A stretch of DNA of 63,976 bases, the filler included, from Catajapyx aquilonaris (lineage: Eukaryota), in the NCBI GenBank assembly GCA_000934665.2. It is 2 parts of 2 records of this genome, joined end to end, with 100 filler letters (N's around TTAATTAATTAA, not from the genome) between each part and the next. Parts side by side here need not be neighbours in the genome. Positions count along the whole stretch, not along the records: positions 1 to 31,939 come from JYFJ02004477.1; 1 more part is not named here. One strand, 5' to 3'. Each line of letters starts with the position of its first letter. Within the stretch, counting starts at the first letter, position 1. The notes under the pieces were generated by a model. The model ran no database searches, was not told the origin of the DNA, and saw only the letters and a program-made list of their open reading frames with translations. The position numbers were made by a program, and so were the translations under genes. Shown here piece by piece: positions 2,491 to 30,400 of the stretch.

Positions 2491-4021
2491 ATGGAAGATC
2501 TGGTGGGATGGCGGCATGAAGTGGATGAAGACTTCTTGGAGGAATGGGTGAGCAGCCTGATGGAGCAGGAGGGAGGTGAGGGGGAGACCCACTGCCAGGA
2601 CAAGCGTCGCGTCCACCACATCGAACACTCCATCAGGAAGGAGGCGAAGCACTTCAGAGAGAGTATCGCTCGACTCAGAAAGCAATTCGCGTGGAGGACG
2701 CGTCGTCGGCCTCCTTCGACTTATTCCCAGGAGGATCGGGAGTGGTTGAGTCAGGAGGGCCAGCGCATTGGAGAGAAAATGGTCCGCATGCAGGGAGAGA
2801 TGAACTGCTTTCGGAAGAGGGTGACAGACTGGGGCCGACTCCTCTGGCAGGATGTCGACACATACCAGATAGAGGAGCGGCGCCTTGCTGTGGCCCTCCT
2901 GGACTCCCATGGCAACATAAGGGACCTCACGCCACTACAAACCATCGTCAATCAGGAGTTGGGATTGGCACAGGGAAATGAGGGGCAAGCAGGACCTTCT
3001 CGCAATGAGCACCAAGCCAATGTGGAGGTAATTACTTGATTGCAGTTTACTATATGCACTGTTCTCATGTGACTGTGGGGTTGGACATGGTAGTGCGTCA
3101 ACAATAATATTGGAGGATTAGATGGTCACAGGAAAATTTAAATGTGAAATACATTTAAATAAGCGGAATAACAATCTTGAGAACCGTGCCGGAAGATTTT
3201 GTTGAAATCGTTGTACTTTCCGAGATATAAATTAATACGTTTCTGCCACTTGCCACTTGCCATTCATATCGAATAACTCCCAAATTTACTTATTTCTCGA
3301 AAAGTATGACTATTTCAGCAAATTCATCTGGCATGCTTCTCAAGATTGTTATTCCGTATATTTCAACGTATTATGTAATTAAATCAGCCTCACAGTTGGC
3401 CGGCAGCACTCAAGTTCGAATTTTTACAGCGATCTTTTCGGAAATTAATATAGGAACTGCTACGGTAGTAAAATGGTTTCCAACACATTCATAGTGCTTT
3501 CCACGAACGGGTAAGCTGTTAGTATTTGTAAAATATCATGTTCGTATCTTCAAAGCAAGCGTAAGCAGAAAACTAGGTAATGGCGGGTATAGCTGGTATT
3601 GAGCAGTCGAGTTCTCATCACCTAGATTCGAGGTGGCTGGGGGCGAAAGAGTTAGGCATCTTTCATTGCCATAATAATTATTGTACTTGTTTTATTATTG
3701 AATGTTCCTACCATTCCCGGTTGTCATTTTAAAATTTAAAGCATGGCCAAGTGACTGTCATTTCTGGCAATTTCTTGGCCATCACATTATTGATAGGAAA
3801 TATGGAGTCTCGGTTTTGTACATGAGGAATAATCTCCACTAAAAGTTGTCACGTATGTGACAACAATCCTGGAAATATTTGCCTGTAAATGCTTCTGTTC
3901 ATTTATTTTATAGGAAGGGGCTGGTGATTCAGCATCATCTGGGAACAGCATGGATGGCGAAGGACTTGTGCAGCATGATGCCACAGGTGGACACATGGAA
4001 GAAGTGAATGTTCATGGATGA
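2491..4021 (+). CDS. Truncated array copy A' (variable coiled-coil-like exon 1 + exon 2 only; ~214 aa if expressed, otherwise pseudogene)
   Basis: Exon 2491-3027 (ATG, LDSHGNIRDLTP motif, phase-0 donor GAG|GTAATT). Exon-2 homologue starts at 3914, has lost its donor and reads to TGA at 4019-4021. AATAAA at 4085-4090, then sequence resembling the 3' flank of other copies. No ankyrin or SOCS exons. Confidence 0.6.
3165..3652 (-). mobile_element. Partial non-autonomous piggyBac-like element (same family as 24643-25395)
   Basis: Reverse-complement similarity to 24643-25135, including the terminus (…GGCTGGGGGCGAAAGAG vs CCCTTTCGACCCCAGCC…). Confidence 0.65.
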
Positions 4022-4265
4022 AACATGTTGGCTATTTTTTTTTTTTTTTAAGACTGGGTGTTGTTTATACCTTGGTATACTATAAATAAAGGGTCCTTCT
4101 CTAATGAATTTATTTATCATTGCATACTGTGCCACCGAGGCCACCTTTTTAAAGCGAATTAATAGACTTGCCCTGTAGAAACAACAGCATCGTTTTCATC
4201 AGAAATATTCTTCAATGCCTAAGATTTCAGAGAGAACCGAAGAAAAAAAAAATCTCTTGACAAGA

Positions 4266-4548
4266 TTTGAATAGCCCGGGAAGGAGAGGGACTTTCTACT
4301 CCCTCTCCGCCAGGTGGCCAGCTCAGCTCTGTGACTAGAGAGCCACTTTATATATCGTACATCTCTGTCCGCCGCCTCCACATTCGGCCATGTTCTTTTC
4401 GCCAAGGCCTTTTCCATCTAATTCTCTTGCCCGCCTCATGTTCCGAGTGTGAGATTGTTTGGAAAAGAGTCGTTCTGGTTGTAGGAAGGGGCATCCTCGG
4501 CGGCATCGGAAGGGAAGAGGAGGATCTGGTGGGCCTAGGTAGGACCAG
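4266..4548 (+). promoter_or_regulatory. Promoter and non-coding 5' exon of array copy B
   Basis: TTTGAA-TAGC-CCGGG-AA at 4266-4282 and CCGCCAGGTGGCC at 4307. Donor CCAG|GTACAC at 4548/4549, acceptor TTCCAG| at 4638. Homologous to 13873-14094 and 27127-27339. Confidence 0.6.
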
Positions 4549-4699
4549 GTACACACAGTGTGTGCTGCATAGTGTCTGTCGAATGAGTGGGGAGAAGGGC
4601 TTCTCCATGTACACACTAGTGTTCCTGTATTATTCCAGAACATTCCCCACCAAGTCGAAGGGTTGGAAAGAGTTGTCTCCAGTCGTGTAGTAGCTGGAC

Positions 4700-7600
4700 A
4701 TGGATCAGAAGGGAAGGATGGAGGATGAGGAGCGGAGGGAGAAGAAGAAGAGTTGCAATAAGGAGCAAGAGGACCGCTTCTGGGTAGAGGTCGTGCCCAT
4801 CCCAAAGGAATTCATCTGCACGAAGGAACAGCGGGGAGGGCCGCCTTCGAGAGGCCTTCTGCGGGCCTGCATAAGAATCACCTCGCAGCATGTAAGCACA
4901 CTGTGGATGCCAAAGCCTTGCCTTGCTGTGGTCCTTCTCGACACCCAGGGCAACATAAAGGACCTCACGCCAGTGCCAGTACCAATACCAACCAACGATC
5001 AGGAGTTGGAATTGGCACCGGGAAGTGGTGATGGGGAAGCAGGACCTTCTTGCGAGGAGGAAGAGGAGGATGAGGGACACGCCAGTGGGGAGGTAATTAG
5101 CTAATTGCAGTTAACCATTTCAGGGACATTTTTGTGTGGTTGGACAGGGTAGTGCAACAACAATAATCTGGGAGGATAGGAGATCAGAGGGCCTGTCATC
5201 AGACTCTACCTGATTGCAATTTGTGGAGCAATACTTATTTCACAGATATGACTAATGTCCCATGTTGGCCAATTGTGATCATTTTCACCCGATTTTGGAT
5301 TGTGCTTGGACACTTCTTAAACCATTTATTCCACCTGCAGTGACTTTGTAATTTCTTTTTGCATATACTATATACAGACTTTTTGAAAATGTACAGTGTG
5401 TTCCAAGCATATCGTCATTTGTAGTTGACCTGAAATTGTTTTTTTGTATACTTTGTTGTACCCTCATTGAGGTGCCCAATTTATGGCAACTGCGCTATAT
5501 TCGACCATCTGGTAATAATTGGGCACCTGGATCAGAGCGCAACGAGGTACACAAAAGTATACCTTGTGCATTGGACAAGAGTATTGGATGATAGAGTACT
5601 CCAATCCTTCACTTGATTATCGGGTAAGGCTGCAGACATACTTCTCTAAGCCTTTAAGAGATGCGACTTCACATATGCACCCATCCAGGGATCAGTATCT
5701 TGAGAGCCATATTCCTGAATCGTACCCCACAATATATGATTTTGATGGTTCCAATGTAGTTTTGACATTTTTATAAACAAGGAGTGGACGTAGAGGAAGG
5801 AAGACAATTCCTCTATATTTTCTGCTTGAGTTGTTGATGCAAGCATTTCTCTGATCCATCTAGCTCGCCTGGTGCCAATGTCCTGAAGTGCCACTAGAAA
5901 ATAGCTGCTCCAGTTGTAGCAAGGTTGCAACCTGCTGGATATGGGCAAGTCATACTTTTTTTCTCTCTACCCTACCAAAACAATTATTAAACATTTTAAA
6001 GATACTTTCATTTTCTTACAGAGTGTTGCAGATTTTTGTGTGTACATTTTTCGACACTATTAGTGATAGGCTAGTTATATTACCACTATTCATTTTGATG
6101 ATGCACTTTCCTTGGATGTCTATGTCTGTATAGTAAATTTACCACCAAGCACGATTGTGGTCCAAGTGAGCACAAAACAATGACTATATCTAGGGGGGAG
6201 TGTCTTGTGGGCAGGAGTAATTGCAATTTTGGCAACAACTCATGTGGTTGCAGTTACGTGATCTCTTGCATAATCTGAACTTCGGGTGTGTGTGTCCGGC
6301 AACAAGTCTAAAGCACTACCATGTAAATGTAATGTGCAAAGATGTTGGTGATAGCGAATTATTGTTCTTATCCGTTTCCTAATGTGACAACTTCAGGAAG
6401 TCAACATGTTAATTTTTTTACTCCATGCGTAAAGTGTTTGTTGACACTTAATATAGGAGTAGGGGTGACATTAGATGTGGCCATTAAGGCCATTTAAGGG
6501 CACAACCAACTGAGTGATGTAATATCTGGGCAATATTGGGTACGTACCTAATTTTGTACATTACAAAAGATGAGATGATTTAACCCTAATAAGATGGGTG
6601 GTTTTTCGCATTTTTGGATGGATCTGGAAAAAATTTGCTTGCTTGCTCACTTTCGGGACGAGACTTGAATACAAGAGTGAATAAGATCGTCTAGTGTCCA
6701 GGCTAGATCCTGAGGCCATCTATGTGACCCTCCTCTCATTACCATATGCAGTGGAAATTCTCAAATGCACAACAAGTTGGCGCGGGGGGTATGTTTCGCT
6801 CCTACTCCAAGTTTTTGTCACTCTGGCTGATTGCCAAAAAGTATTTCAGTATGTAGCCTTGGCACCCCTTTACAAAGCAGTACATAAGCACATGGCATGA
6901 ATTACGTCACAGGCCTGCTAGGTATGCAGCAGTGATAAACACACAACCCCTCACGAATTTAAACATCCCTTCAAGTCACAGCTACTGTATTTACTCGCAT
7001 ATAAGACGCACCCCGGTTTTGAGGCGAAAAATCGTGGAAAATCGGTTGTTGACTCATATAAGACGCACCCAGATTTATTGCCGTAGTTTGGGAACTGACC
7101 TCGAGCTGCCGGCAGCAACCTGGTGTGCAATGCATGTGCAATGCATGTGCGTGTGGAATCCATTAAAATCCAGTAAGGGGGGGGGGGGGGGGGGGGGGGA
7201 ANGGGGGAGTGGAAAATGGGACAATGCTACGCATCTGAAACGTATAGGTGGCAAGGTCACACCGGAATTGTGCACGTGTGGGGACGGGGAGAGCATATCA
7301 ATGGAAGTGAAGGAGAAACGCAGGTCGTACCATGCCGATTTCAAGAGGAAAGTGATCAACTGTGGTGACAGGACATCAAACCAACAAGCTTAAATTTTTC
7401 AATAAACGATTTTCACGATTTCTCATGGGTTTCACCCGTTGTGCCCTGCCGTATAAGACGCACACGCGTATAAGACGCACCCTACTTTTTGAGCTACAAA
7501 AATCGGAAAAAAAGTGTGTCTTATATGCGAGTAAATACGGTATTCAAAAACCACACGGGGCATGCGCCCCTCGAGCCATACAGAGGCCGGTGTTGAAGTG

Positions 7601-10600
7601 CCCAGATGCCTGCCAGACACTAATTGGCATTATTTTACGAACATTATTTATATTAAAACTATTGAATCAACTTTTGCACTAATTTTAGGGTGGAATCTCT
7701 TCAGGAGGTTTGGGGGCAACTATATATGCCGAAAATTTGCCGGTCAAGGTCGGATTTTTTTTTTCAGCGGCCGCAAAAAGATGATTTCATTCAAGTTAAT
7801 CTGGTTAATCCGGTTTATTTATACACGATTTTGTAGTCCAAAACTCCCGACTTTTTACGCGAGAGAAAATTTCAAAAGCCACACAGAAACCACGTTACAT
7901 AGTGGGAAAACGCTATAGTTTCGCCAGCAGAATTTTTTAAAGCCAGCGTCTCAGCATAGAGACGCCTGTCTTATTAGGGTTAACCACCACCATGCCCTAA
8001 TTTGACTTGGAATGACAAGTGTTACTTTTAGAGAACAATACGTAAGTATTGTCATTATCATAATAATTGCGTTACAAGTTACAAGTTACAAATTATAGGA
8101 TGCACCTACTATCTTCAGTTGAATTTTTTTAATTTTAAAATATTGCCAAGTGACTGCCAAGTCTAGATGCTTTTTAGCAATTACATGTAGTAATTGAGAG
8201 GAAATCTTCACTAAATTTTCAACATGTGACGACAATATTCTGGAAATTTGCCTTGAAATTTTTCCACTCATTCATGCTTTTAGAAAGGGGCTGGTGATTC
8301 AGCAACGTCGACGAACAGCATGGATGAGAATGGACTTATGAAGTGTGATGCCACAGTTGGACACCATGAAGGTATCTTGCATTGGTTTTCGTGGTAGCCT
8401 TTTCTTTCATGAGCTTACCAAATGACGATAAAATGATGTGGATTATGCCCTATTTTGTATTGGCCATCTTTCCACCTGACATTCTTCTCAATGCTAATGC
8501 TACACAGCTGTGTAGGTCGACAGAAGAAATGCATAACCTGCCAGTCTTTAAAACTGAGATATTGCCCACTTGTAGATCACTTGTAGAAAATCTAGTGTAT
8601 AAATTGGAGTAGGCCTACTCCTTTTCGGCCCAGTGACAGCAGTGCAAGAAAAACTGCGCATGTTCTTGTCACTGGTGTAAGATGTTCTTGTTCCCAAATG
8701 ATTTTTTTTTTAAAACACAGCATCCTGAATTGACACTGAGGCCATTAACTTTGAAAAAAATCAGGTTATCAGATTATTGGCACAAATAAGCGAGCAAGAA
8801 TGCTGAATTGCAAGACTTTAACTTTTTCTTCAAAAATATTAGGATACATCATCCTTCCACTGACCTGTCAATTTTCTCGGAAGCCGTACCTGAAGAGAAA
8901 TCACTCACAAGTTTTTAAAGTTGCTTTCATGGAAATATTAGGTCGGTTAACATGTTTTAATTTTAGGTGCTGCCTGTGAAGTTTTGATCGAGACCACCGA
9001 GGACCTTGGTGATGGTTTGCATGAAAATGATGAAGGCTGCAGTAAGTCAAGTGAGAAAGCTACGTGTGGCAACATCAGTCAACGGGCCAGCAGGTCCGTG
9101 GGATTGAAGTTTTTGGTTTTGTAAGAGAGAATGTCTGATAACATGCCATTTCAGAAAGAGGTCTTACCCAGAGGACTTGGAAAATGACAGCAAGCAATCA
9201 AGAATGAATGAGGGAACAGTCCATGGGAACAACCAAGATGACGACAAACCCGAGGGACCTTCCCTAGCCTGTAGCACACCGTAAGAAATAATAGCATGTT
9301 TATAATTTCTAGAAAGGATTTCTTCCAAGGTGGAATATGCAGTGTAACATGAGAATTTAAATTGGAAGTTGGTCCTCATAATACAGGTAGTACCCGTTTT
9401 ACGTCGTTAATTGGTTCCAGCAAAACATGGTGTAAAGTGAATCAGCGTAAAACGAGACAAAATTATAAGGCAAGTAAATGAGATAGGTTCCAAAATTTCC
9501 CAAAATTTTCCATAGACAGTACTGCTCAAAATATTAGGTACCATCTGTCATTGTCAAAAAATGAAAGTTAAGAATCTGCCAGGCTTCCAGCACCAGTGAC
9601 CGTTTCAGATGTGAAAAAATTGCAAATCTCAACTGTCAAACCCAAGTTTTCACTGCTTGCTGAACAACTCCATAAAATCTGAGTTTGCCTTTTTCATCTC
9701 ATATTATTATTATTATTAGGAACAACTTCCAATGAAAATTGTGATACATTGCAAAATACATCCTGGAAGTGATCTTTCAGATGTTAGTCACTGTGTTATG
9801 ATGAATAACAGTTCTGTTACTCATACATAGACTTGTTTGAAATGCAGGGCTGTTCCTGGAATGACACCGTTGATGAAAGCAGCAATTGCAGGTCACTTTC
9901 AAATGGTGGAAGTCTACGTTGAAGCTGGCGCAGACTGCAGCGTGTTGGATAAATTGTGGGAACATGTCCCTCTTAATTGGATAGTGGCAACCAAGAATCG
10001 AAGGCAGGTTATCCTAATGCAGTTCCAGATATTCCTTTACTTTATTAATCCCTGTATCGTAGGGCCTCTTATTGATTGTCTACTTTTTTGGAGGGAAGGT
10101 GGAAGGCTCTTCTGTTGTAGGCCCTTCCCCTTACGTTTGGGCTAATATAAACTAAGCAGCATCACAGTTACAAAACAGTCAAACAGTGAAATAAATTAGA
10201 GCAAAAAATATTGTCTGGGTAGCATTTGGTAAAAATATTGCATGAGATCCATGTGTTAAAAATGACCTGAAAACCTAGTTGCATCACAGATCATCAACAA
10301 CCAAACAACAACAATAATAAATAATGTCACAAAATTCATGTCACATTATGACTGCAGTGTGTATGTCCAGTGCTGATACAGTCCAGGACACGTCTATTGC
10401 CTGACACATCTCATAAGATTGTTCGTTATGTTAAAATTTCACGGCAACCTTTTCAATTAAAAGTGCAAGGCTGCAAGAAGGGAAGCACACCTACCAGGAT
10501 ATTTCATACGTTGGGTTTGGATTTTATTATCCGAGTAACAAGGCGTCTCAGAAAGTAGATACCACTACACAAAGTGATCCTCTGATTGCCGGCAAGATCT

Positions 10601-13003
10601 GTGAGCTATTTAGCAAAACGAAGGACTGAAGGAATTTGCCTTGATTCGTTGTGATGGAGTGCGCTGAACATGGGATATGTCCTACAGAAGAAGTTGCATA
10701 TTTTCACAGCCATGTAGGCTGGTACTCACACATTTTCCCCTGTAACATTATTTTAGAATAGTACCAGTTGCATTTAAAAAATTTGACAAGGATCAGAATT
10801 ATGGAAATCTACCCTGGTTATTGCGGCATGCCAGTCGACCTGGTTGTACACTGGCAAGCCGGTTTAAGTGAGGTAATACGGTACTTCCCTGGTGTATCAC
10901 TTTGGGGGAAGAAAAAAGGATTCAGAGTATAACAGAAACCTGTCCATTATACGACAGGTTGCCCCTATATTCAATCCACATTGTCATTGACATTGATATC
11001 TCTTTTCAGGTCGTGCTGTGTTCATGCTTGCTGTTTTTTTTTTTTGTTAATTTCAAAGATGGACACAATGTTACCTTTATAACCTACAGAACATTGCCGT
11101 ATCAGGTCCAGCAACTCTGTCAGATTGAAGATTGTGTAAATTCATGGAATGCTGGCTACTTCACACCTTATTTGGGCCACAAGAGGTCTCTCTCATGTGA
11201 CACGTGTTCGAAGTAATTATTCCTGTGAGCAGAGAGTTTTTACAGACTGAATTAGCTCACTGAATATGGAGCTTTTACAAACTTGTTTCATTCATTAAAT
11301 TCATTCATCAATCCCTGTGTGAAGAACAGTTACCCAGCTAGTAAAACTTGCTTGACACCAGTGTTTAATTTCCAGCCAACATGCAATTCCCATCATGATG
11401 GAAAATGGATTCAACATTGCTTCTGAGTGCTACCAGGTGATTGATGGGTTGCCTCACTCGGATGTGTGCATGATGCGATTGAGCAATGGTGAAATGACCC
11501 CATTTGAGTCACTGTTTGACCTAAGAATATTTAAGGTCGCAGAGTATCGTTATGCTATGCCCATCACCCTTCTACTGTGGTCTCATGGTGAAGAGGAACA
11601 GCTTGATGAACTAAAGTCATACTTGGACGCAGGTATGGTGTTTAACTGAATTAAATGTGTGCCACTTGGAACTATGATGTAATGCATGTCTGGATTTCAG
11701 GTTTGCAGATAAACCCAACCCGACTGGATGTGGTGCCTCCTCTGTCTCTCTTCTTGCGTCATTATGACAGCAGGGGGCTCACAGATTCCCTCCACCTGTC
11801 CATCCTGCGCCTTCTGCAGATTCGAGGTCTGGACCCAGACTACACGTCCAGCCACAACACCTTTGGAGTGCCAGATTCACTTGTGGCTGCCAGCCTAAGC
11901 GACCCCCGAACCCTGGCCTTCCTCCTGACGTTCTCTAGGACCACCCCAGAGCAGATTCTTGACAGGTGCATATATTGATAATAATTAGACACTAGATCAG
12001 TGGTTTCAGAGCTTTTTTGTCATGTAAAAACATGTAGCTGCAATTGAGCAAGGTTCCATAAGGATCACTATACTTGGATGGGAATAAGTGCACAGTTGTT
12101 CTGCATATGGGAGATGATTATACACTTTGCAGTTCCATGGTCTGGTCCTGCATATTGACCTCGTATGAAAGTAATTTGCTCATTTCCTGTCAGATCAACG
12201 CGATTTGCACATGATTTCCGTGCATCCTTAGCTTTCTGGTCCAAGGTTTCTATTATGAATCAGAATTTTTGTTCCCACAAATGTAGAGACCAGATGACAC
12301 TACACAATATGTTTCACTTCTCCCAAAATTGTGTCCTCGTAACCTTGTTTGTTAACCACTGATCTAGATAATGGTGTCTCGATATGGATTTCATGCATGC
12401 TAATCACATCTGCGCAAATTCCAACAGGTGGACAGTTGTGCTGATGGGCAGTGATGACGGTGGTGGCGTGAGGGTGGTGAGGCGGTGTCTGCGCAGACGA
12501 TTTTCAAACCACATGAAGGCCACTTGCAATGTGGCAGTAGCGTTGGGAGGCATTTGTTTGGGTCATGATCGGGTGAGGAGGTTCCAAGAAGCTGTGAAGG
12601 CAGCAACGAGAAGATATGCTGACTGGGAGGACCTCCATGAGCGCATGGGTGAGATTTCTGTAGCTTGCTACCACTTGCTATACATAGGTATGCTGGTACG
12701 AGTGGCTCGTATTTTGGTCACCCTGCCTAGCTCACCGGCTTCAGTAACTGATGCAGAACTAGCCCACGTTGTTTATTTAGACTCGTTTCTGAATGTGGTG
12801 ATTATTTTGCCGTTGCAGATCGCGAAGTCCCATCCCTGAAGCACTTGAGCCGGTGTGGAATACGCCAAGCACTGTCGCAGTCACTACGTCCAGGCCAGCT
12901 GGTTAAGAGTGCTTTGGATCAGTTGGAGGTTCCTGAGACACTCAAGCCCTTTCTGTTGTATTCTGATATTGACCTGCTCAAGTTCCCCATAGGAATGGGC
13001 TAG
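4700..13003 (+). CDS. Coiled-coil + ankyrin-like + SOCS-box (ASB-like) protein, array copy B, complete, ~605 aa
   Basis: Nine exons: 4700-5092, 8284-8371, 8967-9093, 9155-9280, 9848-10003, 11376-11632, 11701-11965, 12428-12648, 12819-13003. Total 1818 nt, in frame (intron 5 needs a GC donor). Ankyrin repeat GMTPLMKAAIAGHFQMVEVYVEAGAD; SOCS box VPSLKHLSRCGIRQAL...LEVPETLKPFLLY. Confidence 0.8.
6584..7979. mobile_element. Non-autonomous piggyBac-like element
   Basis: TTAA at 6580-6583 and 7980-7983 flanking TIRs CCCTAATAAGA / TCTTATTAGGG. Confidence 0.75.
6985..7540 (+). mobile_element. pogo/Tc2-type non-autonomous element nested in the piggyBac-like element
   Basis: TA target duplication and TIRs CTGTATTTACTCGCATATAAGAC / GTCTTATATGCGAGTAAATACGG. 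Repeated TATAAGACGCAC motifs. Relic peptide MEVKEKRRSYHADFKRKVI resembles the Brinker-type DNA-binding start of pogo transposases. Confidence 0.8.
11998..12361. mobile_element. hAT-type MITE in intron 7 of copy B
   Basis: Ends CAGTGGTT / AACCACTG, flanked by an imperfect 8-bp duplication CACTAGAT / ATCTAGAT. Absent from the equivalent intron of copy A. Confidence 0.65.
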
Positions 13004-13485
13004 AAGAATGTAGGACTGCAGTACCTGAACAAGTGCACTTTGGAAGTCTAAGAGTGAATGTACCTGGATGAATCATGTTTAATTTTCTTATTCTTGCCTC
13101 ATGTGTGTTGTGACTTTGAAAATAAAAAAAGTGAGTTGCTGGAGTCCAGTTATTTGTCATTGCATACTCTGCTGCCATTGCCACTTTTTAAACATTAAAA
13201 TGAGTATGTTGTGATCTGTGCCATGTTGCAATCTCTATGGTTTTTGCAAGAAAATTAAACAAGATAGACAAATTGGCATAACGGCTTTCCCATGGGCTAC
13301 AGCTCGCAATCGTGTTTGTGATTATGCTCCAGAATAATAGTCATGAAATTGACCTCTGTTTCATAGGCAATGTGGTTATTTGATAAGCTTTTTAGAAGCA
13401 AGTTCATGAATTGCATTACAGAACAGTTACAAAAAGTGTGGTTCCTCCTGTTTTCTTAGGGCAGGTTGAAATGTACAAAATAATA

Positions 13486-13872: not shown

Positions 13873-14094
13873 TTTGAATTCCCCGGCAAGAGGAAGCAGT
13901 TGTCGCCCACTGCCCGCCAGATGTCCGCACGTTTCACTATCTGTATAATCTCTGCATCATCCAGGCCGCCATTTGGGATTGGACATGCTAGTCACCCTGT
14001 CCGTGCCGACTCTTCGTTTGCCCCGTGTTCCGCCCCGTGTTCTGCCCGCAGTCTGACGGAAAAAGGAGGTTCTCGTTGTAAGGGGGCGCACCAG
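13873..14094 (+). promoter_or_regulatory. Promoter and non-coding 5' exon of array copy C
   Basis: TTTGAA-TTCC-CCGGC-AA at 13873-13889 and CCGCCAGATGTCC at 13914. Donor CCAG|GTACAG at 14094/14095, acceptor TTCCAG| at 14169. Confidence 0.6.
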
Positions 14095-14230
14095 GTACAG
14101 CATTGGGTAGGCAGCGGCAAGCCTACAACTCAAAAGCTACTCTTTTATTTGTGTGTGTGCATATTCCAGAACGTTCCAGAACATCCCCCAGCACCAGTGA
14201 GGGTTGGAACTGCCTTCCAGTCTACTAGTG

Positions 14231-17200: not shown

Positions 17201-20200
17201 GTTGTGCCTGGATTCCTCTGCCCCCATAGCAGGAATTGGGGCCTCTTTTTTATATGAATTTCAACCCGGAAAAGTGTATATTGGCCACCTGCACCTCCTA
17301 AGTGCAGTCTATTGGCACAACTACATTAGATCTATGCTTTGCTTCATCAAGTGTGTTGAAGGACAAGGCCAACGCGTGTTTGCAAGCTCGAATGACGCTA
17401 TGTTGGTTCTACTGTAGGCGTAGTAAAATTTTTATTGCATGTGTTCAGTGATAATTAATTATTTGTTGTTTTATCCAGCAATGGAGGACACGAGAGAGGA
17501 TAACTCATAACATGTCATTTCAGGAATTCTTTGAATTCAGATGGCCCTGAAGAATCGGGAAGTGAGAGCAAGGAATCAAGAGTGAATGAGGAAACAGTCA
17601 ATGCGAACAACCATGATGACAATGTATCGAAGGAACCTTTGCTTTGCATAAATAATGTGTAAGAAACAATAATAGCAATTTTGTATTTTATAGGTATTCA
17701 GATATGTTATCTGGTTGTGGAAAATAGCCTTCACCTGACTCATATAGAGTGACATGGTCTTTATTGTAATGCAGGGATGTTCCTGGTATGACACCGCTCA
17801 TGAACGCAGTGAGGGCTGGACACTATGATGTTGTGGAAGTGTTTGTGGAACCTGGAGCAGATTGCAGTGTGTTGGAAAAATTGTGGGAATACCTCCCACT
17901 GTACTGGACAGTGCTTACCAAGAATAACAGGTAGGTTATCCAAAAGGCTATCTCAGATGTTCCTGTCAACTTATGCATCATAGGCATACACTGACCGACA
18001 CCCAAGTTCACTGTATAATTTGTAAATTATTTTTTATTTCCAGCCAGGAAGTACTTCCCATCATGATGAAAAATGGTTTCAACCTTGCTTCTGAGTGCTA
18101 CCAGGTGATCAATGTGTTGGCTTTCTCGGATGTGTGCATGATGGGATTGAGCTACCATGACATCACCCCATTTGAATCACTGTTTTTGGAGAGAAAGTTC
18201 AGGGTGGCAGAGTATCGTTATGCTATGCCCATCACACTTCTACTTGGGTCCCATGGTCAACAGGAACAGCTTGATGCACTCAAGTCTTACTTGGATGCAG
18301 GTATGGAGTTTTGACTGAAGAGTTACGTGTCATCTGGCACTAATGAAATGCATATCTGGATTTCAGGTTTGCAGATAAACCCAACCCGACTGGATGTGTC
18401 CCCTCCTCTGTCGCTGTTCCTCTGGCATCATAATAGCCCTGGGCTCACAGATTCCCTCCATCTGTCCTTCCTCCGCCTGCTGGAGTCGAGAGGTCTAGAC
18501 CCAGACTACACTTCCAGCCACAACACCTTTGGAGTACCAGATTCACTTGTGGCTGCCAGCATGAGTGACCCCCGAACCCTGGCCTTCCTCCTGACGTTCT
18601 CTAGGACCACACCACAGCAGATTCTCGACAGGTGCCTATTGATAACTAGATAATCTAGATCAGGGGTGCTCAATCTTTTGGCAGTCACAGGCCACACAAT
18701 AAGCAAGTCTTATACAAGTCTTATTTAAAAAGTATACAGGGTGAAGGGAAACTCCTGGACAATCACCAGGTAGACTGATAGTACTTGCAAAACTAATACA
18801 GGGATGTGCAATTAGTTTTGGACTCCTTTGCGTAGTTAATGCGTATGGCTCCATCGAAGTTTCTTGCCGTCACATCCGTTTCGCCAGTGTCTAAGAAGCA
18901 AAAGTCAGTTCGAGGGCCTCTGGTCCCTTGCCTCAACCCCCTAACACATCGTCCCTGTGCAAAAAGCGATCAAATCCCGCCAGAATAAGAATCTCGGCAC
19001 GACACCCGTGCACTTTGTCTTTTTTATCTCATATTCCACCATCTGGCCCTCTACACTTTAAGGATGCCGTATGCATTAACTATGCAATGGAGCCAAAAAC
19101 TAATTGCACATCCCTATATTAGTTTTGCGACTACTATAAGTTTACCTGGCGATTGTCCACGAGTTTCTCTTCACCCTGTACGCCATGTTTATGCTTAAAT
19201 TCAGGTGCAACAAAAAGACTGCAATTTTAACATTACTTGAAAATTAATTTTATTTCTAAGTTTGCACTTGCAGAGCCCTAATTCCATCTTCAGATCATCC
19301 AACTCTGATTCTGGCTTGCCTTCTGCTGTTATCAACTCTTGGATTTGTTTATTTTGTGCCATTATGTAACAATAATTTTTTCGGGGAGATTCCCTTTCGC
19401 AGGCCATGAGGAAAGGTGTGACAGGTCATGGTTTGAGAACTCCTGATCTAGATAATAACGCCTTTTTATTGATTCCATGCTTGATAAGCACAAACTGCAC
19501 AAATTTCAACAGGTGGACAGATGTACTGATGGGCAATGATGATGGTGGTCATGTGAAGGTCGTGAGGGAAGATCATCGCACTGCGTTTACAGCCCATATG
19601 AAGGCCACTCGCAGAGTGGCAGTGAAGTTGGGAGGGTGTCTCTTGGGCTATGATCATGTGCGGAGGTTCCAAGAAGCAGTGGATGCAGCAACAGAAACAT
19701 TGGTTGACTGGGAGGACCTCCATGAGCCCATGGGTGAGAATTTTTTTGTTTACCATCATTTGTGGGTTTCTATTTTAACTGCTGTGGTGGGCCTTGTGTT
19801 TGTCCCGTGACCCCGAAGAGCTAAGTCGGTGGTAGCTTCGTAAACAGGCAGGGTCTCCCAAGTTGGACAATTCTTTGGAGTAGAAGACAGACAATGGGGG
19901 ATACCACTCAGGGGACAGTGACTCCATTATTGATGTTTAAAGCTGTATTACAGTGTGGTGTAAAATTTTTAAAAGTATTCCGAGTTACGTAAAATTTACT
20001 TGTACGTACATATTGTTGCGGAACAATCCACTTACTTAAGTCAGGGACTTGCTCTAGTTAACTTGAAATTAATGCGATATTTTGTGCACAATACAATGGC
20101 TGTAAAAATATTGACCCTTCTTCATATACTTTATATGTGCAATGTTGTTCTGCAAAGTTTTCTTAACTGAAGAGGTTATCTTGCACAACTGGGGTGTTTA

Positions 20201-20428
20201 TTTCAACTGGTTTCTAAACACAATGATCATATTGCCTTGACAGATCGCATCCCAACCCTGAAGCACCTGTGCAGGTGGGAAATACGCCGAGCACTGTCAC
20301 AGTCTCGCCGTCAAGACCTGCTGATTAAGAGTGTTTTGGATCAGTTGGAAGTTCCTGAGACCATGAAGAGTTTTCTTTTGTATTCCGACGTCGACCTGCT
20401 CGAATTCCCCAGGGGACGGGAGGACTAG
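14231..20428 (+). CDS. Coiled-coil + ankyrin-like + SOCS-box (ASB-like) protein, array copy C, complete, ~672 aa
   Basis: Nine exons: 14231-14815, 15892-15979, 16820-16946, 17524-17658, 17775-17930, 18044-18300, 18367-18631, 19513-19733, 20244-20428. Total 2019 nt, all GT-AG, in frame. Ankyrin GMTPLMNAVRAGHYDVVEVFVEPGAD; SOCS box IPTLKHLCRWEIRRAL...LEVPETMKSFLLY. Confidence 0.85.
15322..15580 (+). mobile_element. tRNA-derived SINE
   Basis: Pol III A box TGGCCGAGATGG and B box GGTTCTAATCC, followed by a non-tRNA body and A-rich end. An inverted relative lies at ~20780-21046. Confidence 0.7.
18661..19445. mobile_element. hAT-type non-autonomous element in intron 7 of copy C
   Basis: TIRs CAGGGGTGCTCAA / TTGAGAACTCCTG with a perfect 8-bp TSD ATCTAGAT (18653-18660, 19446-19453). 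Confidence 0.85.
18737..19178. mobile_element. Tc1/mariner-type MITE nested in the hAT element
   Basis: TA flanks and roughly 90-100 bp imperfect TIRs (CAGGGTGAAG…AAACTAATACAGGGATGTGCAATTAG / CTAATTGCACATCCCTATATTAGTTT…CTTCACCCTG). Confidence 0.85.
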
Positions 20429-20779: not shown

Positions 20780-21046
20780 ATTTTCTGCTTCATTCTCTGG
20801 TGCAAGGAAACAGGGACAATGGGAAAGGAGAGGGATTTTTTGGGGAGGGAACATGGGTGCAAGTGCAGTGTCGGTAAAGGGGTCATGTGCTGTTCCCCAG
20901 GAGGCTAGGTTGCCAGACACCTCCTTGGTACAGGTCAGAGACCCTCCTGACGCAGGTGAAAGGAAAGCTCCCCAGGCGGGGATCGAACCTGGGGCCTTTC
21001 ACTCAGCCAGCCGAGACGTTACCATCTCGGCCATCTACACCTCCCC
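20780..21046 (-). mobile_element. tRNA-derived SINE (inverted relative of 15322-15580)
   Basis: Minus strand reads GGGGAGGTGTAGATGGCCGAGATGGTAACGTCTCGGC…GGTTCGATCC; body matches the 15322 copy. Left boundary approximate. Confidence 0.7.
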
Positions 21047-21373: not shown

Positions 21374-21374
<1 letters not shown>

Positions 21375-21419
<45 letters not shown>

Positions 21420-21890: not shown

Positions 21891-21921
<31 letters not shown>

Positions 21922-22120
21922 GGATACCTCGCGATATGGCTCCTTGAGTCTTTTAGGGGATGATATTTCCAATAACAGTCTTTAATCATTGCCCGAAAAA
22001 AACTACATAAGACTCGGATATCAAATTGCGGCTTGAACCTTGCGGTCCTTGCCGCGTGTGTTTCGGTAAGGTACGCTTACCGGACCAGACCGCCCGGCAG
22101 CGCCATATCAGGACTAAAGT

Positions 22121-24267
22121 ATGGCGAGAAAAAGGAAGACGTGCCGCAGGAAGAAGAGCGTGGCAAACAGGATGAAGCGAGTCAGGTAAGTGCAATAAGC
22201 ATTTTTTTTGGAATCGATCGGATTACACTGTGCAACAAAATTTGCCTTTATTTTGTCCTTTTTCCCCTTGCGAAGGGCAACCCGCAAGGATCAGAAGAAA
22301 GCTGTGACAGCTCACAACGACGCCAGAATGGCCTGCAATCCTAACGAGTGGGTATATTATAACACATTGAAAAATGCCATTGATATGTTACGTTATGTTC
22401 CCTCAACTCCCCAGAACCCCGGATGCTTCATCAGTCGCAAACGTCTCGGACACGACGACCTCAACCTCCTCTCAGATGGTTGACATGGCCACAGTATACT
22501 CGGAACCTGCCTTCTCTACACCAGTCAGGTCTTCTGCTAGGCGTTATGGGCGAGATGACGTTTTCGATTTCACGGAATCCGCGACGTTGTCTCCCATCCA
22601 GCCGTTGCATATTCGCTCACGGTAGGTGTAAACGTTTACAAACCGGTCGGGGTATAACCAGCTTGCATCCTAATCCAGGTTGATCATTTTCCCAGTCCCG
22701 CACCAGACCCTCATGCAGATTCTGAGAGTGAAGCCTCTACAGGTCCGGTGGTTTTGCAAGGGCGTAGAATTGTTTCCGTGCAGCATTTATTTGCGCAAAT
22801 ATTGGGGGATGAACACGCCCCATTCGGTTGTTCATTTGTACATAACGATGTGATTAAGGAACACTGTGATGGCCTGAGATGCATATGGACTTTGCGTTGC
22901 AAAATGTGCAATAAAGTCACAGTCCTGCACTCTGATGAAGATGCTGAAACAACTGTACCCGTCAAGGATGCAGCTGTAACTGGAATCTTGGCTGGAGGAG
23001 GAGGATACTCCTCTCTGATCAACCTCACGTCTGGCTTAAACATGCCGTGCATGACCAGCAAGACGTACGTGAGGCATGAGAGGAAGCTGGGGAAGATAAT
23101 TGAAGATGCCGCATTGGATTCGATGATCCAGGCTGGGATGGAGGAAAAGTCTCTTGCGATAAGCGAGGGCCGCGTGGATGTAGACGGCATACCCCTCATC
23201 GCCGTCATAGCTGACGGAATGTGGGGTAAGAGGTCCTACAAGACCAAATATGACTCCCTGTCTGGTGTGGTACGTATCACTTCCTGAGTAGTAAGGGTAT
23301 GAGTAGCATTTCCGTTTTCAATTAGGCCAGCATAGTCGGTGCTCGCACTAGGAAAGTACTTTTCTTGTCGGTCAGAAACAGGTACTGCCTGGTGTGTGCA
23401 CTGGCGCACCATAGGGGTGTTACCCCTGATCCCAAGCACCATTGCTCGAAAAACTGGCAGAGCACCGCTACGAGCATGGAGGCTGACATTGTCGCGGAAG
23501 GCTTCGCATGCAGCATCAACATGCATGGCGTCAAGTACAGCCAACTCATTGGTAAAGGACTGCCCACTCACACTCTGGAAAATGTTAATGTCATTTTGTC
23601 TTTCAGCCGACGGGGACAGCAGCGTGTACAGGAGACTGTTGGAGACGGTCCCGTATGGTCCGAGGATTGTGGAGAAAATCGAGTGCAAGAGCCATCTCCT
23701 CAGGAACTTCTGCCGGCACCTTCGGGCCATAGCCAGCACGACGAGTTATCCGCCTCATCTGCGCAAGCTACTGAATGGCAATGTCCTCAGGTTGCGCATT
23801 GCTGTGTCTAAGGCTTGCCTTTTTCGGAAAGATGAACCTGGTCAGTACGATTCTGTATATGTGGATGCTGCAGCTTTCAGAGGCTGCAATGATGACCATT
23901 TCTTATACTTACAGGAATAATGCATGAACGTGTTATGGGCCTCCAGAGAGACATCCGAAATAGTGTGTGTCACGTTTTCGGCCAGCACGACAGATGCGCA
24001 TCCTATTTCTGTGGTGGACCAAGCGGCGCACACAAGGGCGACTGGAACTTTGTGCCTGAGTTCCAGCGTTGCGGGATGTGGTTCGACTTGCAAAGGTTGG
24101 TCCAGAAGTTGTCGGACGATGCCAGCAGCCTCATCCACTACGTCTCCAACAATCAATGTGAGGTGCTGAATAGCGTGACAGCTAAGTTTTTAAGCGGGAA
24201 GAGTGACTGCTCTTGTTGTAGCCCAGGGATCGCCAGTGTGGTACAGCAGCAACAACAACAATCATAA
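22121..24267 (+). mobile_element. Intron-containing Mutator-like DDE transposase gene (~576 aa, probably 3'-truncated)
   Basis: Exons 22121-22185, 22276-22347, 22415-22621, 22696-23269, 23326-23551, 23607-23840, 23915-24267; 1731 nt in frame. Motifs GRRIV, CxxC, VIADGMWGKRSY, VRNRYCxxC, HxCxxNW, SMEADI, IADGDSS, ECKSH and NNQCE are typical of the arthropod Mutator-like transposase family. Confidence 0.85.
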
Positions 24268-24537
24268 ATGTTACATGTAAAACTCCACTACCGGTCCGTT
24301 TAATGTTTAGGAATGATCCACTTGCATAAGTCGGGGACTTGCTGGAATGAAATTTAAATTTATTTTACATTTTGTGCACCATTTTTAGATGGAGAAATGG
24401 TGAACCTCCTTTATTCACTCCCCTCTGCAATTTTATTATGCGAATTTTCTTAACTGAAGATGCCATCTTGCGCAAATAGGTTATGCTTTACTAGTTTATT
24501 TCAACTGGTTGCTAAATATGATATGTTGCCTTGGCAG

Positions 24538-24640
24538 ATTGCGTCCCAACCTTGAAGCACTTGTGTAGGTGGAGAATACGCCAAGCACTTCCTGCTTTAT
24601 TCAGACGTTGACGTGCAGAAATTCCCTATCAGACATGGTT
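24538..24640 (+). pseudogene. Orphan, internally deleted SOCS-box exon of the array
   Basis: Intact acceptor, then CVPTLKHLCRWRIRQAL, followed by a deletion/frameshift. Preceded by ~230 nt homologous to intron 8 of copy C and interrupted at a TTAA by a piggyBac-like element. Confidence 0.8.
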
Positions 24641-24642
24641 AA

Positions 24643-25395
24643 CCCTTTCGACCCCAGCCACCTAGAATCTGGGTGATGAGAACTCGACAGCGCAGTACCT
24701 GCTATACCCGCCATCGCCTGGTTTTCCACTTACACGAGCGCTGAAGATATGAAGAATATATTTACCAATAATAACAGCTATACTTACCTGTTCATGGAAA
24801 ACACTATGGATGTGTTGAAAACAATCTTCCTCCGATAGAAGTCTCTAAATTAATTTCCAAACATTTCGCTGTCAAAGCGCGAAATTAGAGTAGGCCTACT
24901 GCCAGCCAACCGTTCGCTGATTTAATTATGAAATACCTTAAAATATATGGAATAACAATCTTGGGAAGCAAGCCAAATGAATTTACTGAAATCGTCATGC
25001 TTTTCGAGAAATAAGTAAATTTGGGAGTCATCCGAAGTGACCAGCAAGTCGCAGAACTTTATTAATATGTTTCTCGGAAAGTACAACGATTTCAACAAAG
25101 TCTTCTGACATGGTTCTCAAGATTGTTATTCGGTATATTGCATTTCATTATTAAATCAGCTTAAAAGTTGCCCAGTAGTTGAACTTGAATTTTCATCTTT
25201 TACAGCGATCTTTTTGGAAATTAATTTATAGGACTTCTATGCGAGTAAAATTGTTTCCGTTATTCCAAAATCATGATGTTATTATTTGTAGAATATCTTG
25301 TCCTTATTTTCATGTGGAACAGAAGCGAAAAGAATCTATGCGATGGAGGTACAGCTGGTATCTGGCAGTGGAGTTCTCATCACCTACATTATAGA
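24643..25395. mobile_element. Non-autonomous piggyBac-like element with long imperfect inverted ends
   Basis: TTAA at 24639-24642 then CCCTTTCG…GGTGATGAGAACTC. Inverted match GAGTTCTCATCACC near 25370-25384. Right terminus is degraded. Confidence 0.65.
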
Positions 25396-26692: not shown

Positions 26693-26876
26693 ATTGCATC
26701 CCAACCCTGAAGCACTTGTGCAGATGGGGGATACGCCAAGCACTGTCACAGTCTCTCGGTCCTGGCCAACTTGTTACGGATCAGTGTTCCTGAGACGATC
26801 AATTGAGCTTTCTTTTGTACTCTGATGTTGACTATTACTAAAGTTCCCCATGGGACAGGAGGATCTCCAGAGTCTA
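26693..26876 (+). pseudogene. Second orphan, decayed SOCS-box exon
   Basis: CIPTLKHLCRWGIRQALSQSLGPGQLV then a frameshift and stop. Acceptor mutated (CAG to CTG). Preceded by intron-8-like sequence from ~26440. Confidence 0.8.
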
Positions 26877-27126
26877 GCGGCTGGCAGCACAGAAATAAGC
26901 AAAGAAATGCACATTTCAAATCTGGGAGGAAATTATTTGAAGACCTTGGGGAAAGAACGATCAAAGTCCACTTTTTGTCAAAAATGAGTTGCATAACTCT
27001 GAAGATACTTTCATTAGTGTACGTAGAACATGATGGTTTGGTCGTGGTTGTGGAGTAATGATCGTAGGTCACTATGGAAAGGCCCCAAAAGTGGGATTTA
27101 CACTGTTCGAATCACATTCCGATGGA

Positions 27127-27339
27127 TTCGAATTGAGCGGCAAAGAGCGGCAGTTTCCATCCGCGTCTCGCCAGATGTCCTCACTCTCTAGGTCATCCAC
27201 ATATTATGACATCATTGGACGTTCCACTAAACGTGTCCGTGTGACTGGTGCTGTTCGTTTGCCCCGTGTTCCGCCCCGTGTTCTGCCCGCAGTGTGCCGG
27301 AAAAGGAAGTTCGTTGTTCGGGGTGGACCGGCAGACCAG
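27127..27339 (+). promoter_or_regulatory. Promoter and non-coding 5' exon of array copy E
   Basis: TTCGAA-TTGA-GCGGC-AA at 27127-27143 and TCGCCAGATGTCC at 27168. Donor CCAG|GTACAG at 27339/27340, acceptor TTCCAG| at 27461. Confidence 0.6.
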
Positions 27340-27498
27340 GTACAGTATGCGTGCAGTAGAGTGACTGATGGGGAGGGCTGCAGCTTCTCTCTCTCTCCGC
27401 CACAACTCAAAAGCCACACTTCTTCCATTCCTGTGTGTGCTGTACACTTGTTTCATTCCAGCACAGCTCCAGTGGGTCGTCTCAGTCGTGTGCTGGAC

Positions 27499-30400
27499 AT
27501 GGATCAGGTGGGAGGGAGCCAGGAGGAGGAGGATCGGAGGGAGGAAGAGGAGACTCGCAGGCTGCGAGAAGAAGGGAACGACATTCGCTGCCACGACTGC
27601 AGACGCTTGACCTACATCCATCTCACTGCCGAGAAGGAGAGGCATCGATTACATCAGCGTGACAGGCGGGTCAAGGAAGCCTGTGACTGCCTCTCCCAGA
27701 AGGTGTGTCGAGTGCCCCCTCCATCCAAGGAGGAGGTGGAATGCTTGTCCCTTGAGATCTCACCCCTTGAAAAGGAGCTGGCGTGCGTAAGGAAAGATGC
27801 TGACCATTTATATAAGGAGGCAAGCAAGTGGAGTGTACTGCTCCAGCAGGATGCCGCCACACTCGAGCTAGAGAAGCGTCGCCTGTGCGTGGCCCTCCTG
27901 GACTCCCACGGCAACATAAGGGACCTCACACCACTACCAACTGAGATTCAGAAGTTCGGATTGGCACAGGGAAATGAGGATGGGCAAGCTGGACCTTCTC
28001 GCAAGGAGGATGAGGGACAAGCCAATGTGGAGGTAGTTACAATTAAATGCAGTTAGCCATTTCAGGGAAATTGTTGTCAAGTGTAAAGCAGTGCTTCCCA
28101 AACTGTGGGTCGCGAACATTATGCAGTTGACTCCGGATATATTTTTTATTCCTAATATAACAGATTCATTTGCACCTCACCCTGGCTGTAACAGACCATC
28201 TTTTTGGCCCCTTGGCAGGAAAATATGCTGTTCCTGATTATTCAACTTCATTTCCCATGTGCAGGAAGGCATGGAATACTGAGGGGGGGGGATTTTTACA
28301 TCTGTCACTGATCCAAGTTACTCAAAATCACACTTTTTCTGGCATATTTGGCAACAAGGAGACGGAATAAGAATATTACGGATTTTTTTGGTCCTGTCTA
28401 ATTTGCTGGTGAGCTAATTTGGCATTTTTTGTGGATAGTTTCATTTTTAAAAATGCAGTAGTGTGTGTATTATAACCATATGGAAAGCGTAAAGCTTGTA
28501 TATTCTCTGCAAAAGGGGCCATTTACCTATAACAGACCTCAGTTATGACATGCTTTTCCCACTGTCCCTTGAAGTCTGTGATATCCGGAGTCAACTGCAT
28601 TTGGGGTCGTGAGGGAGGGTAACAAATTAATATTATTTTAACAAAATGATTCTGCCTCTACAAAAATATACAGTAAAACTTCTATAAGTCAAACTTCCCT
28701 AAGTCGAATGAAATGATGAGCTTGGTTGGTCACAATGTAAATAATAATAGTGAAATAAACTTCCCTAACTCGAATTTTTATAACTAGAAGTGCTGGCAGG
28801 GCCGTACGATGGGATATCAATGCATTTTCAGTCGAAGTCGAAGTCCATGTTGGCGAGTATGGAAAATTTTCTCATTTCTCAGCCAAAGGGTCGAGAGTTG
28901 GTCACATGTACAGTACCCTGCATTAATGGCCATGCACAGACACCGCCATCTGGCGGGAACGAGCGGAAGTAGATGAAGTTGGTTGCGTCCAAAATACTTG
29001 GGACAGCTCAAGGCTTCTCACGAGTCCGCTCAAGGCTGCTCAAGACATCGCAGTGGATTAACAGGCATTCACGTGGTACGTGTAATAACTGGTTCACAAC
29101 CTCAATACATTGATAGGAATCGCAATGGCCTTATAATATTCATCCCACAGATACAGATGTGATCCGCTGTGATCCATCTTTGTAGCAAGCGTTTGAATCA
29201 ACCGCGATATCTTGAGCTGTCCAAGTATTTTGGACGCAGTCCACCGGCGCCTAATTCCGCTCGTTCTTGGACAGGTGGCGATGTCTGTGCATGGCCATTA
29301 ATGCAGGGTACTGTACAGAAGGCTCAATTTCCTGATCTCCGTCTACCAGACATACCTAAAGAAGAGTTTGACTCGATTGTGACAATTGAATCCTTGAGAA
29401 TCTAAGAGTAGGCAAATGTCCATAACGGAGATTTTTTTTACAACAAAACGAGGAACATTGTAAGTGTGATACTTGGCGGTTATTTTTAAGTTTTTATCAC
29501 CTTTCGTCGCTGGATATAAAGGTAGGCTTCCTTATAGAGTTATGTGCTTTAAAGAATCCAAACTTCTCTAACTAGAATCTTCTATAACTCGAAGTTTCTT
29601 GCAATTGGCTGCATTTTCATTGCCAGTTTGTTCTGTAAATTATTTGTTCATGTCTGAAATTTGTGTGCGCAAGTCTGCATCTATGTAAGGCCAGTCTAGA
29701 CAAGAGTCCAGAGGTAAGTCAGGGGCTGCCAGTTTATGTCACAACAAAATTGAAGAGATTTCCTTTAACGTAGCCATTCATTCATTCATTCATTCTAGAA
29801 AAGGACAGCGGATGCAGCAACGTCTGGGGATGACTTGGATGGATATGGATTGATGCAGCATCATGTCACAGATGGACACCATGAAGGTATCTTTGTATGG
29901 TTTTGATAGTAGTCGTTTCATGCAAGGGCTCATGGAGAGTGCACAGCTATCTGACATTATGATGTACATACCCGTTTCTGCCTTTGCCATTCTCCCTCCT
30001 GATATCCTTCTCATTGGGGCACCGCTGTGGGAGTAGATGGATGAAGTTTGTATCCTACCAACATTCAAAACGAAGCATTTTGAATTGAAACATTTTGTTA
30101 TGATGTTTGCTAACATTATAAGAAAAGTTAATGAAGTTGGATAACTCTGTATGTTCCTTCTGTGGAAACCATCAGGTCTATCAGTAGGCTTTTATTTTAG
30201 GTGCTGCAAATGATGCTTTGATGGAGAGCACCAACAAGTTTGGTGATGGTTTGAAGAAAAGTTATGCTGGAAGCAGTAACTCAAGTGAGAATGGGATGAG
30301 TGGCAACAACAGTCAGGCAACCAGGTCTTTGTGGGATTGAAAATTTGGGTTTTACAAGGAAGAATGTCTGATAGCATGTTGTTTTAGGAAGAGGTCTTTG

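Follow-up and report, generated by a model that had tools for sequence, protein, structure and literature searches.

A tandem cluster of ASB-type ankyrin repeat/SOCS box genes with a divergent helical N-terminal region in Catajapyx aquilonaris

A 63,976-nt stretch of DNA from one genome, that of Catajapyx aquilonaris (GenBank assembly GCA_000934665.2), was analyzed at its full length and is referred to here as the window. Its sequence is eukaryotic in character, with GT-AG introns and approximately 44% G+C. Self-comparison of the window using blastn and tblastn revealed a tandem array of related genes on the plus strand, and all comparisons between paralogs are among the copies found within it. 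Exon boundaries were assigned by exon-by-exon alignment of the copies together with reading of the splice sites, giving a full unit of nine exons, the last of which (exon 9) encodes a SOCS box. The domain content and copy inventory set out below firmly identify the locus, at the level of sequence, as a cluster of ASB-type ubiquitin-ligase receptor genes evolving by duplication, truncation, and loss. An earlier interpretation of the same DNA (the sequence-only reading) had implied units of seven or so exons, thereby missing exons 8 and 9 and with them the SOCS box, and had assumed four sets of exons 6 and 7, of which the window holds three.

Only copies B and C are complete. Copy B (4700 to 13003; 605 aa) consists of exons at 4700-5092, 8284-8371, 8967-9093, 9155-9280, 9848-10003 (with a GC donor), 11376-11632, 11701-11965, 12428-12648, and 12819-13003, and copy C (14231 to 20428; 672 aa) of exons at 14231-14815, 15892-15979, 16820-16946, 17524-17658, 17775-17930, 18044-18300, 18367-18631, 19513-19733, and 20244-20428. 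The spliced frames of both are open through all nine exons to a single terminal stop, and their introns are all GT-AG except for the GC-AG intron 5 of B. The donor of this intron is GC in B (10004-10005) and D (30789-30790) and GT in C; use of an alternative GT located five bases downstream in B and D would break the frame. At the start of the window lies the tail of a further unit, copy 0 (411 to 2194), whose exons 1 to 5 lie upstream of the window and whose exons 6 (411-667), 7 (739-1003), 8 (1099-1319), and 9 (2013-2194, SOCS box and stop) are open for 307 aa to the stop. Copy D (27499 to 30788) has exons 1 to 5 only, at 27499-28032 (178 codons), 29799-29886, 30201-30324, 30388-30525, and 30633-30788 (GC donor); exons 6 to 9 were not found downstream of it in the window, where runs of N occur from 31256 on. 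Across the window, tblastn (E up to 1) recovered four copies each of exon 1 and exon 2, three of exons 3 to 5 (B, C, and D), three of exons 6 to 8 (copy 0, B, and C), and three of exon 9 in addition to two broken relics. Exon 1 thus occurs together with exons 6 and 7 in B and C only.

Copy A (2491 to 4030) retains exon 1 (2491-3027; 179 codons) and exon 2 (3914-4001), and its exons 3 to 9 were not found in the tblastn inventory of the window. The exon 2 donor is destroyed, and sequence resembling a 3' untranslated region (UTR) at 4003-4153 directly abuts the exon, matching the B 3'UTR (13053-13192) at 68%; on these grounds A is read as a unit that has undergone an internal deletion. A product of 214 aa could still be made from it, lacking both the ankyrin and the SOCS parts. 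As the exon 1 donor of A is intact while that of exon 2 is not, we considered whether exon 1 of this stub might instead be spliced to exon 2 of B, providing two N termini for one core. Copy A lies 1.7 kb upstream of exon 1 of B on the same strand, and its conserved motif part (see below) is under purifying selection (ω of 0.27 versus C). However, A runs into 3'UTR-like sequence of its own, B retains an ATG (in a context matching that of D) and a donor of its own, and all nine exons are present in C itself, leaving alternative first exons an improbable account of the array.

Two fragments of exon 9, both on the plus strand, were identified between copies C and D by alignment and tblastn. Relic X (24538 to 24627) carries part of the SOCS box with an early stop. 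In relic Y (26693 to 26864), the acceptor is mutated (CTG) and the frame is interrupted by a frameshift and by stops; it is what is left of a unit lost immediately upstream of copy D. Mutator-like transposase open reading frames (ORFs) at 22658-24267 (plus strand; Pfam PF20700, E values of 9e-35 and 1.5e-12), spread over at least two frames, sit between relics X and Y, so a transposon has integrated into an array unit that was destroyed. With A truncated, D lacking its 3' half in the assembly, two exon 9 relics, and this insertion, it could be proposed that most or all copies are unexpressed pseudogenes whose variable N-terminal part is simply drifting. The intact frames of B and C (605 and 672 codons), ω values of 0.2 to 0.4 in exons 5 to 7 and in the exon 1 motif, and variable parts that are open in all four copies argue against a decaying array, which we regard as very improbable.

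ASB proteins are characterized by ankyrin repeats combined with a SOCS box and act as substrate receptors of Elongin B/C-Cullin 5 ligases. Exon 9 matches Pfam PF07525 (SOCS_box) above the curated cutoff of 23.5 bits in all three intact copies, scoring 40.1 bits in C (E value of 4.2e-10), 34.9 in B (1.9e-8), and 29.5 in copy 0 (9.1e-7), with matches running from profile positions 1-3 to 39 of 39. The BC box through which SOCS boxes bind Elongin C has the consensus [STP]-L-x-x-x-[CSA]-x-x-x-[LIV], and this pattern is present in the alignment as TLKHLCRWEI in C, SLKHLSRCGI in B, and TLKDLCRWGI in copy 0 (T/S-L-K-x-L-C/S-R-x-x-I). The Cul5 box has the consensus L-P-x-P; the corresponding region here keeps the second proline and the L-x-x-F-L-L-Y stretch after it and lacks the first proline. 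Exon 5 encodes one clear ankyrin repeat (Ank_3; E value of 1.1e-6 in C), also found in B, and this is the only repeat that Pfam detects. The near-constant ankyrin core described in the sequence-only reading is therefore borne out for a single repeat, and its picture of a variable front end joined to a constant effector holds in outline, with the exon 9 SOCS box, which it had not seen, as the constant effector. Exons 6 to 8 look, by eye, like degenerate ankyrin repeats. Language-model features place exon 7 next to ankyrin clusters in the ESM Atlas (score of 0.96): the first-ranked ankyrin family set is carried by 14 of its 30 nearest clusters, and further rows carry other ankyrin families, although the recognition value is below the mark and the result serves as a lead only. 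Using hhalign, no match to the exon 5 ankyrin alignment was obtained for exon 1, 6, or 7.

In all four copies exon 1 runs from an ATG to a conserved GAG/GTA[AG]TT donor, and splice-site reading confirmed the lengths previously given for it (179, 131, 195, and 178 codons in A, B, C, and D, respectively). Toward its end, each copy has the 21-residue motif that had been noted from the sequence, [EK]RRL[CA]VA[LI]LDSHGNIRDLTPL in A, C, and D and KPCLAVVLLDTQGNIKDLTPV in B, located by alignment at 2875-2937 (A), 4913-4975 (B), 14654-14716 (C), and 27874-27936 (D). Nucleotide identity jumps from approximately 0.55 to 0.8 to 0.9 within about 25 codons at this motif, inside exon 1. The variable parts that precede it are open in all four copies, as claimed; after nucleotide shuffling, the probability of an open frame was 0.001 to 0.027 per copy, and G+C content at third codon positions is 0.67 to 0.72. 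An open frame with coding-like composition indicates that the variable parts are maintained coding sequence. The further statement that they are barely alignable as protein and alignable as DNA proved to be the reverse of what was found: the variable parts of A, C, and D share 25 to 32% amino acid identity over 96 to 114 residues (E values of 1e-7 to 4e-11), while blastn recovered only pieces of 11 to 71 nt. The variable part of copy B is short (72 aa) and barely matches the other copies.

A helical N terminus had also been predicted, and an AlphaFold2 (AF2) model of exon 1 of copy C, computed from the four-sequence alignment, supports this, with predicted helices at residues 4-39, 47-84, and 92-134 and a predicted local distance difference test (pLDDT) score of 72 to 94 over residues 50 to 130. 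A short helix leads into the motif; the motif and the acidic tail that follows score below 50. The third long helix, immediately before the motif, corresponds to alignment columns 101 to 152 and lies at 2728-2874 (A), 4760-4912 (B), 14504-14653 (C), and 27727-27873 (D). When the exon 1 model was compared with the PDB using Foldseek, nothing matched at E up to 0.001 and the hits were helical in a generic way, and the ESM Atlas returned no family for exon 1. We also considered whether the motif might derive from an ankyrin half-repeat (LL-x-x-HG...TPL) that has become vestigial; neither Pfam nor hhalign supports this.

To look for relatives, the exon 1 profile was run in a full HMMER scan of 1.84 billion representative proteins, and exons 6, 7, and 9 were each searched against longer proteins in a word-indexed library; as these libraries may hold few animal proteins, a lack of matches is weak evidence of novelty. 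The library search with exons 6, 7, and 9 yielded no relatives by which orthology to a named ASB (ASB1 to ASB18) could be established. The exon 1 scan found no relative beyond one short-motif match (P0001), a 916-aa repeat protein with no significant Pfam stretch, built from a unit of approximately 70 residues containing [KR]-[IF]-L-D-x-x-G-N-[IV]-[KI], which recalls the exon 1 motif. Its E value of 3.4e-8 is summed over seven short stretches in which an ILDSxGNIK-like motif occurs many times, and it was rejected as a homolog as a short-motif coincidence. A candidate metagenome locus was likewise rejected, being a 21-residue chance match on a bacterial contig, and a scan of viral contigs with exon 1 gave no match. 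The motif string is absent from the searchable literature, and literature searches returned nothing on ankyrin repeat/SOCS box gene expansion in arthropods and nothing relevant by title on positive selection in tandem ankyrin repeat/SOCS box genes.

Nonsynonymous (dN) and synonymous (dS) divergence and their ratio (ω) were estimated per segment using the Nei-Gojobori method (NG86) and, to allow for multiple hits, a Goldman-Yang-type codon maximum-likelihood (ML) model applied pairwise and to a three-taxon star (A, C, and D). Only four paralogs, all of the same genome, were available for these estimates, and the tests on pairs are not independent of one another. Constraint is strongest in exon 5 (ω of 0.24 to 0.33) and in exons 6 and 7 (0.33 to 0.40; dS of 0.24 to 0.29), followed by exons 8 and 9 (0.5 to 0.75). 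The linker exons 2 to 4 evolve close to neutrality (ω of 0.83 to 0.93; dN of approximately 0.32 and dS of approximately 0.35), and as an ML control they gave ω of 0.92 to 1.12 with dS equal to that of the rest of the gene. For exon 1 as a whole ω is 0.56 to 0.87. Its motif and tail give 0.27 to 0.71 (1.21 for A-B) with a pairwise dS of 0.24 to 0.48, and an ML ω of 0.35 (P = 0.01). The variable part gives 0.47 to 1.04 with a dS of 0.85 to 1.75 (NG86) and 0.74 in the three-taxon ML analysis. These direct estimates for the variable part as a whole do not demonstrate the diversifying selection proposed in the sequence-only reading; silent divergence there was at least as high as nonsynonymous divergence, an outcome that, formally, the same reading had named in advance as speaking against diversifying selection.

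The variable part is not uniform. Columns 1 to 100 have an ω of 0.33 to 0.44, below 1 (P = 0.001 to 0.006), with an ML tree dS of 2.35 versus 0.50 for the rest, figures to be read with caution as gaps and a transition/transversion ratio (κ) below 1 in these columns warn of saturation or misalignment. In no segment other than helix 3, which has 49 aligned codons and only three gap columns, does the point estimate of ω exceed 1; its value there is 1.4 to 1.6 with its own branch lengths, which is not significant (P = 0.17 to 0.29). At codons for identical residues, silent differences were counted at 29 of 76 in columns 1 to 100, 9 of 37 in helix 3, and 21 of 123 in the motif part.

Exons 6 and 7 are of invariant length wherever present (257 and 265 nt), as previously stated, but the near-identity attributed to them does not hold: they are 83 to 90% identical as DNA and 74 to 91% as protein. 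With an ω of approximately 0.3 and no significant conversion tracts, their conservation is attributable to purifying selection, and gene conversion, which had been offered as a possible cause, is not needed, although conversion events of an older date may have occurred. A broader form of this idea is that unequal crossing-over or gene conversion homogenized the units from the motif onward, and that the N-terminal part escaped and is simply older, under ordinary purifying or relaxed selection. Silent divergence in the variable part is 2 to 5 times that of the rest of the gene, and equal dS was rejected (P = 0.0001 to 0.012 pairwise and 0.0008 jointly); 4-fold sites at conserved residues differ at 19 of 46 positions there versus 151 of 637 in the rest of the gene. 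The sharp identity step within exon 1 would be expected from such a history, as would the finding that the closest copies vary by exon (A-B in exon 2 and C-D in exon 5). Against this, a permutation test for long shared runs gave a best uncorrected P value of 0.021 among 12 pair tests, and the same boundary occurs in all copies, which is unexpected from random tract ends; an older origin of the N-terminal part thus accounts for the high local dS and does not explain the shared boundary. The excess dS also resides mostly in columns 1 to 100, which are gapped, low in complexity, and GAG-rich, with the κ below 1 noted above. Furthermore, copies C and D share an 81%-identical element of approximately 100 nt upstream of the variable part (14010-14103 in C and 27251-27348 in D; plus strand). 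Mosaic ancestry is thus judged unlikely. The C/D element lies 130 to 150 nt 5' of the start codons with CAG/GTACAG just after it, was not found ahead of copies A or B, and may represent a 5'UTR exon or a piece of the promoter.

Taking the observations together, the explanation we favor, with a probability of roughly 55%, is that the locus consists of tandem copies of a lineage-restricted ASB-type gene in which the N-terminal helices, far more divergent than the remainder, are mainly a weakly constrained accessory module. The exon structure, domains, copy inventory, and rate heterogeneity are observed directly; ligase binding, substrate choice, and expression are what we infer. The cluster would evolve by gain and loss of copies of a unit comprising, in order, the three-long-helix N-terminal region, the conserved 21-residue motif, and an acidic, serine-rich linker of approximately 120 residues (the exon 1 tail and exons 2 to 4) that appears to evolve neutrally, followed by one clear ankyrin repeat and approximately 245 conserved helical, degenerate-ankyrin-like residues (exons 5 to 8) and finally the C-terminal SOCS box. 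By analogy with the SOCS-box family, this box would provide the docking site for Elongin B/C and a cullin, and the ankyrin-like region, perhaps together with the N-terminal region, would select a protein for ubiquitination. Helices 1 and 2 would be under some purifying selection and deeply diverged, while the rate of change in helix 3 would be close to neutral or somewhat higher.

A number of points weigh against this explanation. Every exon boundary rests on conservation between paralogs and on open frames. The ankyrin core is only partly shown, as neither Pfam (at E up to 1) nor PDB profiles gave a match for exons 6 to 8 (approximately 245 residues), and the AF2 model of exon 7, with a pLDDT of 49.8, is unusable, showing helix pairs at low confidence. 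At the Cul5 box, the LPxP position reads LEVPET in B and C and FKVPDT in copy 0. Two results on rates bear on the N-terminal module itself. When branch lengths are shared with the rest of the gene, helix 3 has a joint ω of 2.36 (P = 0.0002), and such sharing is not rejected (P = 0.45); in addition, dN in the variable part is 1.6 to 2.4 times the dS of the rest for the same gene pair, with a bootstrap interval above 1 in nine of 10 cases. Neither of these results is accounted for by relaxed constraint alone.

They are instead what would be expected if helix 3, and perhaps more of the N terminus, were a specificity determinant under true diversifying selection in conflict with a pathogen, transposon, or germline element, with the motif, ankyrin-like region, and SOCS box held constant. 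In pairwise analyses the shared-dS ω of helix 3 is 2.2 to 3.1 (P values, with the joint test, from 0.0002 to 0.018), and a shared dS is not rejected in four of five pairs or jointly for A, C, and D (P = 0.13 to 0.45), although it is rejected for B-D (P = 0.02). The neutral linker, as a control, stays at an ω of approximately 1, and the frames of the variable parts have been kept open. Silent differences in helix 3 are not significantly more frequent than in the motif part (the 9 of 37 versus 21 of 123 given above), and the array itself has gained and lost copies, as its truncated units and relics show, which is also in keeping with conflict. However, with its own silent rate the ω of helix 3 is not significantly above 1, local dS point estimates are 1.5 to 2 times those of the rest of the gene, columns 1 to 100 have an ω below 1, and the non-independence of tests on four paralogs from one genome applies here too. 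Diversifying selection thus fits helix 3, although the fit is significant only when an assumption is made about the silent rate, and the data suggest such selection without demonstrating it; helix 3 may have diversified adaptively, and an arms race may have caused the fast change at the front end, but neither is proven. We consider this alternative a real possibility, though clearly a less probable one than a weakly constrained accessory module.

A more specific proposal is that a new three-helix module, anchored by the invariant motif, forms a rapidly adapting specificity element (helix 3; ω of about 2) of arthropod SOCS-box Cullin-RING receptors, the ASB counterpart of TRIM5-like or F-box arms races, with the 214-aa stub A as a possible decoy or competitor. 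This is speculative, and we would hold it somewhat less probable still than diversifying selection in general. Should diversifying selection on helix 3 prove genuine, the locus would represent an arthropod conflict gene family based on SOCS boxes and Cullin, in which the variable surface and the constant motif are both defined and the effector arm is obvious, all of them easily testable. On present evidence it is a tidy case of a lineage-specific ASB-type cluster that gains and loses copies and carries an unrecognized N-terminal module, useful for annotation and not surprising.

Several further features of the window were recorded. The short introns are 76 to 88% identical between copies and are probably ancestral, while the long introns are alignable only beside exons and look like independent insertions; the global aligner used for intron flanks was crude (shuffled controls gave approximately 0.7 identity), which confines the informative comparisons to the short introns and a small number of flanks. 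Packing of the units is very tight between copies 0 and A, with approximately 300 nt from stop to start (2194-2491) and an AATAAA near 2309, versus approximately 1.2 kb between B and C. Dispersed repeats that are 69 to 79% identical and partly inverted link 3136-3654, in intron 1 of A, with 24640-25390, near relic X, and 15335-15526, in intron 1 of C, with 20839-21033, downstream of C; these are probably transposon fragments. On the minus strand, 53780-59131 contains a series of long Ser/Pro-rich ORFs with several Y-x-x-M-like motifs and no Pfam match, which, judged by eye, resemble the tail of an insulin-receptor-substrate-type adaptor.

Among known systems, the cluster proteins most resemble the ASB proteins, sharing with them an ankyrin repeat followed by a C-terminal SOCS box (Pfam) in which the BC-box pattern is present. 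They differ in that only one repeat is detectable by profile, that an unrecognized three-helix region of approximately 140 residues, the 21-residue motif, and a disordered linker of approximately 120 residues precede the ankyrin part, and that LEVP or FKVP stands in place of LPxP in the Cul5 box. The combination of ankyrin repeats and a SOCS box has been called the most ancient SOCS-box architecture in a review (PMC3670263). Among solved structures, the exon 9 profile is best matched by the SOCS box of SOCS3 (PDB 2jz3), aligned through the BC box, although the match is very weak (E value of 0.38) and SOCS3 has an SH2 domain where the cluster proteins have ankyrin. Clustered protocadherins and UGT1A are variable-first-exon clusters, and like them the array has several different first exons upstream of similar downstream exons; unlike them, B and C each own a full set of downstream exons, and only sharing from A to B is conceivable. 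Ubiquitin-ligase adapters are reportedly the subject of a 2006 paper by Thomas. The F-box and MATH-BTB families of nematodes, which are expanded and fast evolving, are similarly multicopy and likewise pair a ligase-docking domain that is conserved with a variable part presumed to bind the target. For F-box genes of Caenorhabditis elegans, positive selection has been reported (PMC8120010), whereas selection above neutrality is only suggested in the C. aquilonaris cluster, where the docking domain is a SOCS box rather than an F-box or BTB and the units number only five.

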